Of a DNA stretch of 64,000 nucleotides, positions 2,638 to 14,981 are shown in pieces. Below the pieces are notes generated by a model. It was not told the origin of the DNA and searched no databases. It saw nothing but the letters and a program-made list of their open reading frames with translations. Origin of the DNA: a virus. Location: the IMG/VR virus record IMGVR_UViG_3300045988_052681; one strand, 5' to 3'. Position numbers and translations under genes: made by a program. The stretch's first letter is position 1. Every line of letters starts with the position of its first letter.

Positions 2638-4738
2638 CTAAATGAGCACGTACACAAAATGGTTCGCCTCCACTTTCCATACATTTAACTAGTATATTAC
2701 CTACTTCTTCAGCAATATCATCCGGTGCTTCAACATTATGTTCATCATGTACGGGAACACAATATTTAACTATAAATAGCAGATTGTTCTTCCTTAGCCA
2801 ATTGAAGAACTTAATTGCAGACAATTTGAAACACATAGAACCAGCATGTTGTATCGGATAGTTAATAGACTGCTTCATAGAATCAGATAACCTTCTTCTC
2901 AAATGCTGTGAGCTTGTTTTATAATAATTGTCCCCATTACGCCCTAGCATATACTTAGCTTCTGGAGACCCAAGTTCACTGTCGATTTTACACAGATTGT
3001 CCCAGTCATATATAAATGCCTTATGCTTAGTAATAGGATTAAGAAGGATATATCCCTTATCAAGGACATCTTCTCTCCTAAACTCCTGATATCTCTTTAG
3101 TCCAGAGAAACCAGACATATAGTTATTATATACTTCTTGAGCTCTTGCCTTAGTAAGACCATAATTCTTCATTAAAGTGTTCCAATCTCCACCATAATTA
3201 AAACAAAATTCATACCCTTTAGCAGCATCTCTAAGAGGTTTATATTTAGCTTTAACTTCAGATAGTGGAGTGTCATCGGGGATGTCTGTAAATACTATTC
3301 TGGCAGTTAGACTGTGTAAGTCACCACTACCATAGATAAGCTCTTCCAACATCGCCTTATCATTAGCAATGGATGCCATTAAGAAAGACTCCTGCCCTTT
3401 ATAATCACAACTAATCCATTTATACCCAGTATCAGAAATGAAACACGACCTAGTAAATGGGTCATGCGGCAAATTCATTAAAGACGGGTTAGTAGCGGAT
3501 AACCGCCCAGTATCAGCTCCTAATTGAAAATAGTCTGGATGAATCCTACCACTTACTGGATTAATTTTATCTATGAACTTCTGTCCAAAGGTATCAACTA
3601 GAATTTTAGCCTTCTTATATTCTACATAAAGAGGAACTATACTACACTTATGTGCTTGTGGCTTTATCAACTTAATATCAGCAGATTTCTTCTTCTGCTT
3701 AGTTTTAGCATCAATGGTAGTACAATTAAGTCCCAACATTTCAAATAGTGGAACTACTTGTTGACTACTAGACCAGTTAACGTTACATTTAGCTGAAGCG
3801 TCAAATCCACTGAATAAATCGCCTTGTAGATTCTTGGTAACATATGGGAAAGGTTTGTCATATTCATAGTGAATTAATCCGGTTTGCGGATTACAAACTC
3901 TCTTTATTTGTCCCATATGAGGGCCTACTTTGTCAAATAGTTGATTCTCATGCATAATGTCCACTTCCTCTGTGCAGGCTTTAATATAGCCTTCAGAAGA
4001 TTTATGTTCATTATAATAATTTTCAACCCACTCGTTAAGCTTAGCTTCTGCTTTATTAACTTCCTCTTTATCTCGAATCATCTTCTGCTTCCATTTTACT
4101 GGGTCAAGTTTAGCTCCACAATATTCCATATAGGCAATTACTGGAGTAAACTTCATTTCAAATTCAGCAGCCTTAGTTAATTCCTTCTTCTCTAGTTCTG
4201 CATCTTGCTTCTCTTTAATCTTAGTAAGATACATAACATCACCAGCAGCATATTGTACCACTGGTATGGTTAATCCTTGAGTGATAATCTGCCCTCGAAC
4301 AGTTTTATCAATATCTATACCAAGATAGTTATCAGCTGCCGCTTTTAAAGAAAGACTATGAAACTGGGGAGGATAGCCAAGATAGAGTAACTTCTCAGCA
4401 ATCATTCCATCCCATACATTATAAGGAACTATTTTATGGTGATATAGAAACCTTAAATCAAATGCAATATTCCAACCTAAGAAAGTCTTAGTAGGGTCTT
4501 CAAGGACACATTTAAGCTTCTCAATTGGAATAGTTACATTGTCAACGACTATTTGGTCTTCCCCTAAACCATACTGAGTACACAGTAATGGTTTTGTATA
4601 GGGGTCTAAACCAGCAGTTTCTGAATCATATTCTACCCAACTATGTGGCATAATCATGTCTATAGCATCAGATAGAGATAATTCCTTATAAGCGTCAGTT
4701 TCAAATAGTGACCTTTGATTACTGACTAGATATATCAT
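2600..4738 (-). CDS. DNA polymerase, family A, with 3'-5' proofreading exonuclease domain
   Basis: Exo I motif YDSETAGLD at N-terminus; pol motif A-like DYKGQESF; motif C VPVHDE; GAGG SD-like element 5 nt upstream of ATG. Confidence 0.9.
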   Translation of the reverse strand: MIYLVSNQRSLFETDAYKELSLSDAIDMIMPHSWVEYDSETAGLDPYTKPLLCTQYGLGEDQIVVDNVTIPIEKLKCVLEDPTKTFLGWNIAFDLRFLYHHKIVPYNVWDGMIAEKLLYLGYPPQFHSLSLKAAADNYLGIDIDKTVRGQIITQGLTIPVVQYAAGDVMYLTKIKEKQDAELEKKELTKAAEFEMKFTPVIAYMEYCGAKLDPVKWKQKMIRDKEEVNKAEAKLNEWVENYYNEHKSSEGYIKACTEEVDIMHENQLFDKVGPHMGQIKRVCNPQTGLIHYEYDKPFPYVTKNLQGDLFSGFDASAKCNVNWSSSQQVVPLFEMLGLNCTTIDAKTKQKKKSADIKLIKPQAHKCSIVPLYVEYKKAKILVDTFGQKFIDKINPVSGRIHPDYFQLGADTGRLSATNPSLMNLPHDPFTRSCFISDTGYKWISCDYKGQESFLMASIANDKAMLEELIYGSGDLHSLTARIVFTDIPDDTPLSEVKAKYKPLRDAAKGYEFCFNYGGDWNTLMKNYGLTKARAQEVYNNYMSGFSGLKRYQEFRREDVLDKGYILLNPITKHKAFIYDWDNLCKIDSELGSPEAKYMLGRNGDNYYKTSSQHLRRRLSDSMKQSINYPIQHAGSMCFKLSAIKFFNWLRKNNLLFIVKYCVPVHDEHNVEAPDDIAEEVGNILVKCMESGGEPFCVRAHLGADISIEDHWVH

Positions 4739-13339: not shown

Positions 13340-13561
13340 TTATACGTCAGTGTCTAAATCATCTACAGTTAAAGGCTTATTACACTCTTGAATAAGGTTT
13401 CTAGCCAATTCATCCTGTTTAGCTTTCAATTCCTTAATCTTCTCCATAGTCTCACTCATCGCCTTCGCATGATTAGCATAGGCATTATTAAGTGTCTGGA
13501 TTTCCAATCCTATGTCGGATATGGCTTTACTCTTCTCGATTACTTCTACTGTACTTATCAT
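13340..13561 (-). CDS. hypothetical coiled-coil protein
   Basis: 73-aa ORF, heptad-like charged pattern. Confidence 0.35.
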   Translation of the reverse strand: MISTVEVIEKSKAISDIGLEIQTLNNAYANHAKAMSETMEKIKELKAKQDELARNLIQECNKPLTVDDLDTDV

Positions 13562-13743
13562 TTCTCACCGGTATGCCCAAATCCACCTTTACGCTCTGTT
13601 TCATCTAATCTAGCAACTTCTTCCCATTCTGCCACACAAGCCCATCCAAATACTAATTGGGCAATACGTTCTCCATCTTCAATGTACACTGCTTCGTGTC
13701 CTTGGTTAATGACTATTATACCAATTTCGTTTCTGTAGTCCAA
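13558..13743 (-). CDS. dut: dUTPase, C-terminal segment (rest of motif III, motifs IV-V)
   Basis: Begins DYRNEIGIIVIN (completes GxIDxDYRG); ends RKGGFGHTG (motif V); ORF track initiates at a TTG codon. Confidence 0.75.
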   Translation of the reverse strand: MDYRNEIGIIVINQGHEAVYIEDGERIAQLVFGWACVAEWEEVARLDETERKGGFGHTGEK

Positions 13744-14621
13744 ATTTGTTATCGTTAGGCTTTTTATCCTAACTTCTTATACTTCTAATTTAATATAAGT
13801 TCCGCGTACCTATTCACTATCACAGGTCGGGCACTCTTGGAAGGATTATATTTATTCACCTTCTACGCTGTACGATGGTTCAGAGCCTTTCGTAATCTCT
13901 GAACTTATCTCGGGATTAGCATCACAGCCTTCCCCGATATTGCCCGATTTAACGACGCCGACACATTTAGAATGATTGTGGTGTATAGTATGTTCTGACC
14001 TAGTAAGAATCTCAAGGTTCTCTATTCTATTATCCTTCTTATCCTCGTTTATATGATGTACATCATATTCAGGCTTAAGTACCTTCCACCCATCGATGAA
14101 CTCGAAATAAGCTTCGTCAAATCTATCAGAATTTCTTTCAACGACAAGTCTGTGTTGCAGAACTCTAGTAGTTTGATTACTTCTGTCATGAGGATATGGA
14201 TGTCCTGGACAATATTCTAATAAATAGCCGTAACTAGTCACTAACTCAGAATTTTTAAAGGAAGCATTTTTATCACCAACTAACCCATATTGGTGGTTAC
14301 CATCTTCCTTCATATATTCTGACTTTAGCTTATATGAACATTCTAAACTACACGTTATTCCATTCTTAACTCTCTTTAATCTACTTGGCTTGAGATACAT
14401 CTCCCTGCCACAAATTACACATTTACAATTTGGGGTTTTGTTGAACTTCTGCCACTCTTCGTAACATTTATAGGAACAGAAGGTTTTGGGAAATTTCTTA
14501 GTATCTACTGGATAATTCTCTTTACCACAAACTATACATTTACACATAATTAATACTTATTATTGTTAATATACAAAGGTAATGAATTTCCTGGAACAGA
14601 CCAAATCTCCAGGTACAATTA
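13744..14621 (-). mobile_element. intervening sequence in dut carrying HNH endonuclease (probable self-splicing intron; boundaries approximate)
   Basis: A single conserved dUTPase motif is split across two ORFs by ~880 nt that encodes an HNH HEG; inverted repeat GGTACAATT/AATTGTACC pairs exon 1 with the downstream sequence (P1-like). No canonical group I core seen. Confidence 0.45.
13852..14547 (-). CDS. HNH homing endonuclease inserted within dut
   Basis: N-terminal CxxC zinc pairs; C-terminal HHINEDKKDNRIENLEILTRSEHTIHHNH HNH motif. Confidence 0.8.
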   Translation of the reverse strand: MCKCIVCGKENYPVDTKKFPKTFCSYKCYEEWQKFNKTPNCKCVICGREMYLKPSRLKRVKNGITCSLECSYKLKSEYMKEDGNHQYGLVGDKNASFKNSELVTSYGYLLEYCPGHPYPHDRSNQTTRVLQHRLVVERNSDRFDEAYFEFIDGWKVLKPEYDVHHINEDKKDNRIENLEILTRSEHTIHHNHSKCVGVVKSGNIGEGCDANPEISSEITKGSEPSYSVEGE

Positions 14622-14981
14622 TTAATTATTAAATTCAGCGTCGATTGTACCTGGAGTGTTAAGTATAGTAATTCCCTTCTTTAAAGCTAAGCCACTCCTA
14701 GGTCTTACTTGGCACTCATAAATAAACTCACAGTCTTGGTCAGTAACTGGAAGAGCAATCTTTAATCCAGTCGGAATAAGTGCCCTAGCACCTGGGTCAA
14801 GACGAAGCATTGTAACCTTGTTAATATCGGATTTAAAAAGAATTTCACAATCCCCGAATGCTTTAATAGGATTATCAACTGTTACTCTACTGAAGTCTGC
14901 ACGTATATCCATACCTGCTGACGTAGGAGTTTCATACTGGGGAAGTTTGTTATTCGATAGATTAATTACTTGAACTTTCAT
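14622..14981 (-). CDS. dut: dUTPase, N-terminal segment (motifs I-III), interrupted
   Basis: AGMDIRA (motif I), [12 protein letters not shown] (motif II), GTIDAEF (start of motif III GxIDxDYRG), then stop. Confidence 0.75.

Follow-up and report, generated by a model that had tools for sequence, protein, structure and literature searches.

We analyzed a 64,000-nt stretch of viral DNA (IMG/VR record IMGVR_UViG_3300045988_052681), hereafter the window, in which the dUTPase gene, dut, is interrupted within its catalytic motif III by an open reading frame (ORF) for an HNH endonuclease. Based on sequence comparisons, the interrupting segment is very probably a mobile group I intron with a gene for an HNH homing endonuclease (HEG), located in a human-gut phage. 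All the features of the split locus are carried on the minus strand of the window. A previous examination of the letters alone (the sequence-only reading) had favored a self-splicing intron over two separate polypeptides, and our comparative analysis strongly supports this preference through covarying RNA helices, an ORF-less version of the insert in a different phage (L010), and a related dut intron (L008) that passes the Rfam group I model, RF00028.

The N-terminal half of the dUTPase corresponds to a 119-aa ORF (14981..14622) that ends ...GTIDAEFNN-stop, and the C-terminal half to a 61-aa ORF (13743..13558) that reads (TTG)M-DYRNEIG...GHTGEK-stop. The Pfam analysis showed that the first half covers positions 22-72 of the dUTPase profile and the second half positions 71-129 (E 6.9e-12), while the ORF between them matched HNH_3. 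When the two exons were joined, the resulting protein matched the dUTPase family (PF00692) with 76.8 bits (cut-off 22; E 1.6e-21), motif III (G-x-I-D-x-D-Y-R) included. The alignment of the joined protein to solved dUTPases, which had been proposed as a check, showed no gap across the junction, either against 8y1q (LNAPGTIDADYRGEV) or against the other structures; the 8y1q segment opposite the junction is LNAPGTIDADYRGEVKVI, and the break falls within the catalytic motif III hairpin. Thus, the initial observation that an HNH endonuclease ORF splits the dUTPase in motif III was confirmed by the Pfam matches of the three ORFs and by the gap-free alignment of the joined halves.

The exact junction was defined using the closest phage record, MT835470 (L001), an unannotated genome of 117 kb from human faeces that is approximately 93% identical to the window phage. 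This record matches the locus in two blocks that skip the insert, with near-identical flanks; its intronless dut site reads ...CCTGGTACAGTCGACGCTGATTACAGG..., and its dUTPase is an uninterrupted protein of 178 aa (...NTPGTVDADYRNEIH...). Because the MT835470 dUTPase is uninterrupted, the junction in the window can be placed at GTIDA/DYRNE (the slash marks the junction) and the insert at 14636-13741, which corresponds to 896 nt instead of the 880 nt originally given for the distance between the halves. The insertion point is located between the Ala and Asp codons of motif III (GTIDA/DYR). Exon 1 (14637..14981) extends from the initial Met to GTIDA, its last codons being GAC GCT, with the Ala codon ending at 14637. 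Exon 2 (13558..13740; DYRNEIG...GHTGEK-stop) opens with GAC TAC at 13740, and its first three bases, GAC, constitute the exon strand of P10. The N-terminal half had been read as ending in ...EF; nevertheless, exon 1 stops after GCT, the EFNN-stop tail being a read-through into the intron, and the TTG at 13743 is likewise intron sequence. A 2-nt ambiguity (GA) at the window junction was settled by those homologous inserts that begin with a base other than the first one of exon 2, so the exon 1 boundary is based on both the intronless record and the homologous introns with unambiguous limits. The ligated mRNA would read ...AUCGACGCU/GACUACAGA... across the junction and would encode a dUTPase of 175 aa. 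In the annotation, both dUTPase fragments should be merged, without the EFNN tail, into one spliced 175-aa coding sequence, and the HNH ORF should be described as intron-encoded.

The intron (13741..14636) begins with GAAUUU and ends with the omega-G at 13741. Its predicted architecture is IA-like, as it includes P1 and the helices P3 to P9.1, with P7.1 located between P7 and the P3 3′ strand, and no P2. The 5′ strand of P1 is formed by the last 7 nt of exon 1, CGACGCU (14643-14637), which are complementary to the GGCGUCG sequence (13959-13953), with a U.G pair at the junction. This guide sequence immediately precedes P3 and lies 677 nt beyond the 5′ splice site in the downstream direction; the complete internal guide sequence (13953..13962) is composed of GUC (13962-13960), which participates in P10, followed by the P1 3′ strand. 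The P1 loop (L1; 13960..14636) has 677 nt and contains the endonuclease cassette, in contrast with the 14 nt of the ORF-less L010 intron. P3 (UCGGGCA, 13947-13941, with UGCCCGA, 13833-13827) encloses P4-P6, the P7 5′ strand and P7.1 in the region 13827..13947. The RNAalifold prediction described below positioned P4 at 13937-13932/13915-13910, P5 at 13929-13927/13920-13918 and P6 at 13909-13897/13885-13874. P7 is formed by C(A)GCGUA (13870-13864) and UACGCG (13808-13803); it contains a bulged nucleotide and makes a pseudoknot with P3. The P7.1 hairpin (13863-13859/13844-13840), in which four of the five pairs covary, occupies the space between P7 and the P3 3′ strand. A short and weak P8 (13826-13816) is followed by J8/7 (region 13803..13826), and P9 (13799-13793/13782-13776) and P9.1 (13773-13768/13759-13754), both obtained from RNAalifold and pair counts, precede the 3′ tail GAUAACAAAUUUG, which ends with the omega-G and closes the region 13741..13799.

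The core from P3 to P9.1 is shared with the last ~36 codons of the HNH ORF and also covers the next 111 nt. No canonical P7 core had been recognized in the sequence-only reading; the helix is present at the above positions, hidden where the HNH ORF ends and in the 111 nt beyond it. We had also considered, by eye, GUUCAGAGAUUACG and AAAUAUAAUCC as the classical R and S elements of P7, an assignment that was ruled out by the comparison with L010: GUUCAGAG and CUCUGAAC form the covarying hairpin P6, and P7 proper is CAGCGUA/UACGCG. When the window core was folded alone, the minimum free energy structure contained the same helices, with a z-score of -3.6. No second copy of the intron was found in the window with nhmmer and the family profile.

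Our search with the HNH protein identified five viral contigs (L005-L009) in which dut exon 1 ends with ...GACGCT, followed by the HNH ORF and then by exon 2. The tblastn search also reached L010, a clearly different phage whose dut gene contains, at the same position, a 238-nt insert without an endonuclease ORF; this match was possible because the tail of the protein is read from the ribozyme core. The boundaries of the L010 insert are ...AUUGACGCU/AAACGGAUAUAAUUGGCGUCAUUAAAUCGGGC...AACAAAAUUG/GAUUAUAGAGG, and from GGCGUC onward it is 78% identical to window positions 13959-13741. Therefore, the conserved RNA element starts within the 3′ end of the window HNH ORF, and the window endonuclease cassette is an insertion in the P1 loop.

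In the seven independent dut introns (the window and L005-L010), P1 has 7 bp with the U.G wobble at the cleavage site, without exception. The pair between exon position -7 and its guide partner is C-G in the window and L006, U-A in L005, L007 and L010, and A-U in L008 and L009. P10, the pairing of the start of exon 2 with the bases that immediately precede the guide, comprises 3 bp in the window (GAC/GUC) versus 4-7 bp in the relatives, and shows compensatory changes across the dut introns. The window intron ends in G at 13741, and the boundaries are unambiguous in the relatives whose first intron and exon 2 bases differ.

To extend the comparison beyond dut, IMG/VR was searched with a 19-nt motif covering P4-P5, which yielded 114 stretches. 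Approximately 80 of them belong to the same RNA family, with 57 distinct forms that retain a complete 3′ end and are located in many different genes. We aligned 32 non-redundant cores with MAFFT without structural guidance (alignment A2), and our evidence for the core consists of this alignment, the RNAalifold prediction and pair counts. RNAalifold predicted P3, P4, P5, P6, P7.1, P9 and P9.1, with compensatory changes in 33 of the 46 pairs. P7 was then added to this structure because its pseudoknot with P3 is beyond the reach of RNAalifold. In the full structure, including the P3/P7 pseudoknot, 98.7% of the alignment cells are paired, versus 30-40% when the partners are slid by 1-3 columns, and 35 of the 52 pairs change on both sides. 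None of 500 shuffles reached the observed covariation score or percentage paired, and two of 500 reached the count of double-changed pairs. P7 is paired in all the cores, with two covarying pairs and a bulge located beside an invariant G-C pair. Family copies elsewhere carry other GIY-YIG or HNH genes in the loops of P7.1, P8 or P9.

The comparison between the window and the intronless MT835470 also revealed a signature of mobility. Both sequences are approximately 99-100% identical over +/-1.5 kb, outside a divergent tract located approximately between -240 and +120 with respect to the insertion site, where identity decreases to 62-87%. Two other intron-bearing sequences with a 100% identical endonuclease (L003 and L004) present shorter tracts, which extend about 36-42 nt downstream. 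A presence/absence polymorphism together with flanking tracts of variable length is what endonuclease-driven homing with co-conversion classically leaves behind; the homing mechanism, like the cleavage by the endonuclease and its target, is inferred.

Under the proposed mechanism, the last 7 nt of exon 1 in the pre-mRNA would pair with the GGCGUCG guide across the intervening 677 nt, generating P1 with the U.G pair at the cleavage site. The core would fold around the bulged P7, and exogenous guanosine would attack the 5′ splice site. P10 (GAC/GUC) and the omega-G at 13741 would then align the 3′ splice site, and exon ligation would generate the mRNA for the 175-aa dUTPase. In a mixed infection, the HNH endonuclease would cut or nick intronless dut alleles, and repair would copy the intron and some flanking exon sequence into the cut allele.

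Several of our observations weigh against the proposed mobile group I intron. The scan of 2.5 kb of the window with Rfam returned no family at threshold, and the scans of eight related loci with the ORF included gave no group I match; only the ORF-free sub-regions were informative. The intron-model scan proposed in the sequence-only reading was thus negative when the ORF was present, and with the ORF-free window core RF00028 was the best of 4227 families, at a sub-threshold score of 14.1 bits (E 0.21; cut-off 50), in an alignment that recovers P3 and P4 as assigned here and misplaces P7 onto P6. The subgroup IA is characterized by extra pairings, P7.1/P7.2, that follow the P7 5′ strand and precede the P3 3′ strand (PMC2248736); our tentative IA-like assignment is based on one covarying hairpin at the P7.1 position, the place where L008 has an insert of 47 nt. 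Additionally, P8 has only 3-4 bp in the window and is almost absent in L006, versus 4-7 bp in most of the relatives; 677 nt separate the 5′ splice site from its guide; a 13-bp hairpin around the 5′ splice site, described below, could compete with P1 or constrain its formation; and ribosomes translating the endonuclease ORF would pass through the region from P3 to P7. Each of these four features could lower the splicing efficiency.

With respect to the Rfam scores, the gathering cut-off of RF00028 is a curated score threshold and not a defining biological feature. The L008 intron interrupts dut at the position used in the window, encodes a homologous endonuclease and shares the P1-loop arrangement; its ORF-free core scored 64.1 bits with RF00028 (E 2.7e-16), and in its alignment to the model the P, Q, R and S elements are of the textbook type, with 47 inserted nt after P7 and before the P3 3′ strand. 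The window ribozyme belongs to a lineage outside the coverage of RF00028, and it is assigned to group I by its structure and not by a curated score.

A rival explanation is an insert of group I origin that has decayed, in which a weak P8 and a 677-nt P1 loop would make splicing inefficient and dut would be a pseudogene or poorly expressed. A P8 reduced to 3-4 bp and a core with only 14 bits on RF00028 agree with such decay, as does the report that dUTPase is dispensable in some crAss-like phages (PMC7886860). We consider this explanation improbable, since the exon frames are intact with all the catalytic residues kept, all the window helices besides P8 are intact, P1 and P10 are intact and covary within the HEG-containing copies, the HEG ORF is itself intact, and the co-conversion-like tracts indicate a recent and active element.

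Even less probable is that the 119-aa and 61-aa polypeptides are translated apart and reassemble into an enzyme without RNA splicing. Such an arrangement has a precedent in the NrdA protein of Aeromonas phage Aeh1, split by mobE, and in the window both halves are ORFs with possible start and stop codons, with a TTG located exactly at the junction. Nevertheless, two separate genes would leave unexplained the covarying group I core, the P1 and P10 pairings that track the exon sequence, and the 238-nt ORF-less insert of L010, whose downstream half follows a different upstream context; the break, in addition, falls inside the catalytic motif III hairpin. A group II intron or another kind of intervening sequence, an option that had been retained because no group I core was visible and that the lack of an Rfam family at threshold on the window might favor, can be discarded: there is no reverse transcriptase or maturase ORF and only ~200 nt are non-coding, neither GUGYG...AY ends nor a domain V was seen, the RNA folds into a P3/P7 pseudoknot and has the omega-G and U.G, and the same-site L008 intron with its homologous endonuclease gene passes the group I model.

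The inverted repeat that had been proposed as a P1-like pairing is distinct from P1. The repeat exists as 13 perfect pairs between GGTACAATT and AATTGTACC (14656-14644 with 14619-14607); its exon strand corresponds to exon 1 positions -20 to -8, and it encloses the 5′ splice site and an in-frame UAA UAA. We rejected it as P1 because it is absent from the ORF-less L010 and the real guide is at 13959-13953. A related, partly palindromic motif, TTGTTCCAGGA, is found once or twice at the cassette 5′ end in L005, L006, L008 and L009, and a motif of this type appears again at window positions 14598-14588. The complementarity between this element and the exon reaches significance in the window, L006 and L008, and not in L005, L007 and L009. 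Because it is absent from the ORF-less intron, the repeat should be regarded as part of the endonuclease cassette and not of the ribozyme. It is possible, yet unlikely, that the TTGTTCCAGGA-type motif is a conserved RNA/DNA element of the cassette and that the 13-bp hairpin acts as a switch that governs the formation of P1 by the distant guide, coupling splicing to exon 1 translation or to the expression of the endonuclease; if so, this would add a level of regulation that is not known to have been described in phage group I introns. We also considered TGTTCCAGGAA as a general phage promoter or operator, which was unconvincing, with three matches in the 64 kb at no more than one mismatch versus 1.0 expected.

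The endonuclease ORF (13852..14547) encodes 231 aa with two N-terminal CxxC...CxxxC repeats. The protein belongs to HNH_3 (Pfam, E 1.7e-9) and also matches PHROG HNH families; it is 36% identical (E 2e-39) to KP06_gp35 of crAssphage and 55-74% identical to its homologues in other dut introns, and no relative was found among solved structures. Its last ~36 codons (13959-13852) are read from the ribozyme core, from the P1 3′ strand to P7.1, so these bases are constrained twice, by the RNA structure and by the protein tail. ORFs that overlap core elements are known in IA introns, as in nrdF of B. thuringiensis (PMC2248736).

Upstream of this ORF, we observed a TAccTTTG sequence at 14581-14574, 27 nt from the endonuclease ATG and at a similar distance in L006, L008 and L009, which fits TAnnTTTG, the consensus of the Bacteroidetes -7 promoter box. 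This points to an intron-internal promoter specific to the endonuclease gene. Neither the sigma-70 scan nor the terminator scan was informative. Elsewhere in the window, the HNH motif region gave a weak tblastn match at 50629-50537 (E 0.043), adjoining a tRNA-Leu gene, which may be another HNH gene or a remnant of one.

A dut intron with an HNH gene is already known, and the window intron is not a new kind of element. BLAST with the L008 core led us to the prototype crAssphage (Carjivirus communis), BK010471.1, in which KP06_gp34, a joined coding sequence, is annotated as 'putative Dut dUTPase, contains intron insertion' and KP06_gp35 as 'putative intron-encoded HNH endonuclease'. The split of the crAssphage dut was described by Rossi et al. 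2020 (PMC7551546). These records correct the earlier impression that introns in dut were without precedent. Additionally, the dut gene of cr50_1 is split, and cr1_1 has an HNH-endonuclease match. The window and crAssphage introns interrupt the same gene at the same codon position (IDA/DYR and LDY/GYR, respectively), have the guide after the ORF and just before P3 (the crAssphage P1, AGACUAU with GUAGUCU, was read from the sequence), and encode homologous HNH endonucleases upstream of the core. They differ in the core itself: in the crAssphage/L008 core the P, Q, R and S elements are of the textbook type, and the L008 copy passes RF00028, whereas the window core, with the P7 strands GCGUA/UACGC, AUCGGGGAAGGCUG in P4-P5 and 14 bits, represents a different sequence lineage. 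The host phages are also only distantly related, since the best non-self matches of the helicase adjoining dut are in crAss-like phages at ~30% identity.

Among the phage IA introns with HEGs, the window intron presumably resembles those of T4 td, nrdB and nrdD, the SPO1 DNA polymerase gene and Twort orf142; the Bacillus nrdE and nrdF introns are also listed in this phage type. They would have in common a position within a conserved motif of a gene for nucleotide metabolism, the presence of P7.1 and P9.1, an ORF in a peripheral loop that partly overlaps the core, and mobility with co-conversion of the flanking exons. In contrast with them, the window ORF occupies the loop of P1, after the 5′ splice site and before the guide, P2 is absent and the P8 helix is very short. 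In Delta and Zeta crAss-like phages, numerous group I introns were reported by Yutin et al. 2021 (PMC7886860), who detected them by their endonuclease domains; dut is not listed there and no RNA structure is given. Like the window intron, these are HEG-containing introns in core replication genes of human-gut phages. What is modestly new in the window is a ribozyme lineage invisible to Rfam at a known dut site, with a covariation-supported structure and a P1-loop ORF, together with a natural ORF-less variant and a clear co-conversion-like signature.

Our BLAST analysis found the ribozyme lineage in 31 public phage records, including Bacillus, Clostridium, Staphylococcus, Lak and crAss-like phages, and the matched stretch is unannotated in almost all of them. 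Individual cases are Bacillus phage PJN02 (L134), C. perfringens phage 39-O (L135), Prevotella phage Lak-A1, and Staphylococcus and Clostridioides phages. The copies in Firmicutes phages and Lak megaphages are usually located directly after an endonuclease ORF. The window and L010 copies are far below the RF00028 cut-off or give no match. In gut viromes, the genes that this lineage splits will be overlooked or called incorrectly. The dut locus, with ORF-less and ORF-bearing versions, a near-identical intronless genome and graded tracts, offers a clean natural system for the study of homing and of the requirements of a P1-loop ORF.

Some of the related loci presented additional particularities. 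In L005, an extra insert of ~110 nt in the P7.1 loop (3190-3300) includes the T-arm-like sequence GGGGTTCGACTCCCC, with a partial match to tmRNA; ARAGORN called no tRNA or tmRNA in this insert. In L009 (about 3310-3330), dut exon 2 opens with GFRNFWG and not with DYRN, the Asp-Tyr of motif III being apparently replaced; the dut gene of L009 may be inactive, or our assignment of its 3′ splice site may be off. In cr6_1 (L002; 1859-3818), a core 75-76% identical to that of the window, together with an 'intron-encoded endonuclease', splits gp44 and gp42, both annotated as parts of one ATPase-like protein, yet kept as separate genes in the record.

Finally, ARAGORN called no suppressor tRNA in the window and identified fourteen tRNA genes on its minus strand (41064-63197), corresponding to Arg (two), Leu (two), Met (two), Gln, Thr, Asp, Glu (two), Ser, Phe and His.

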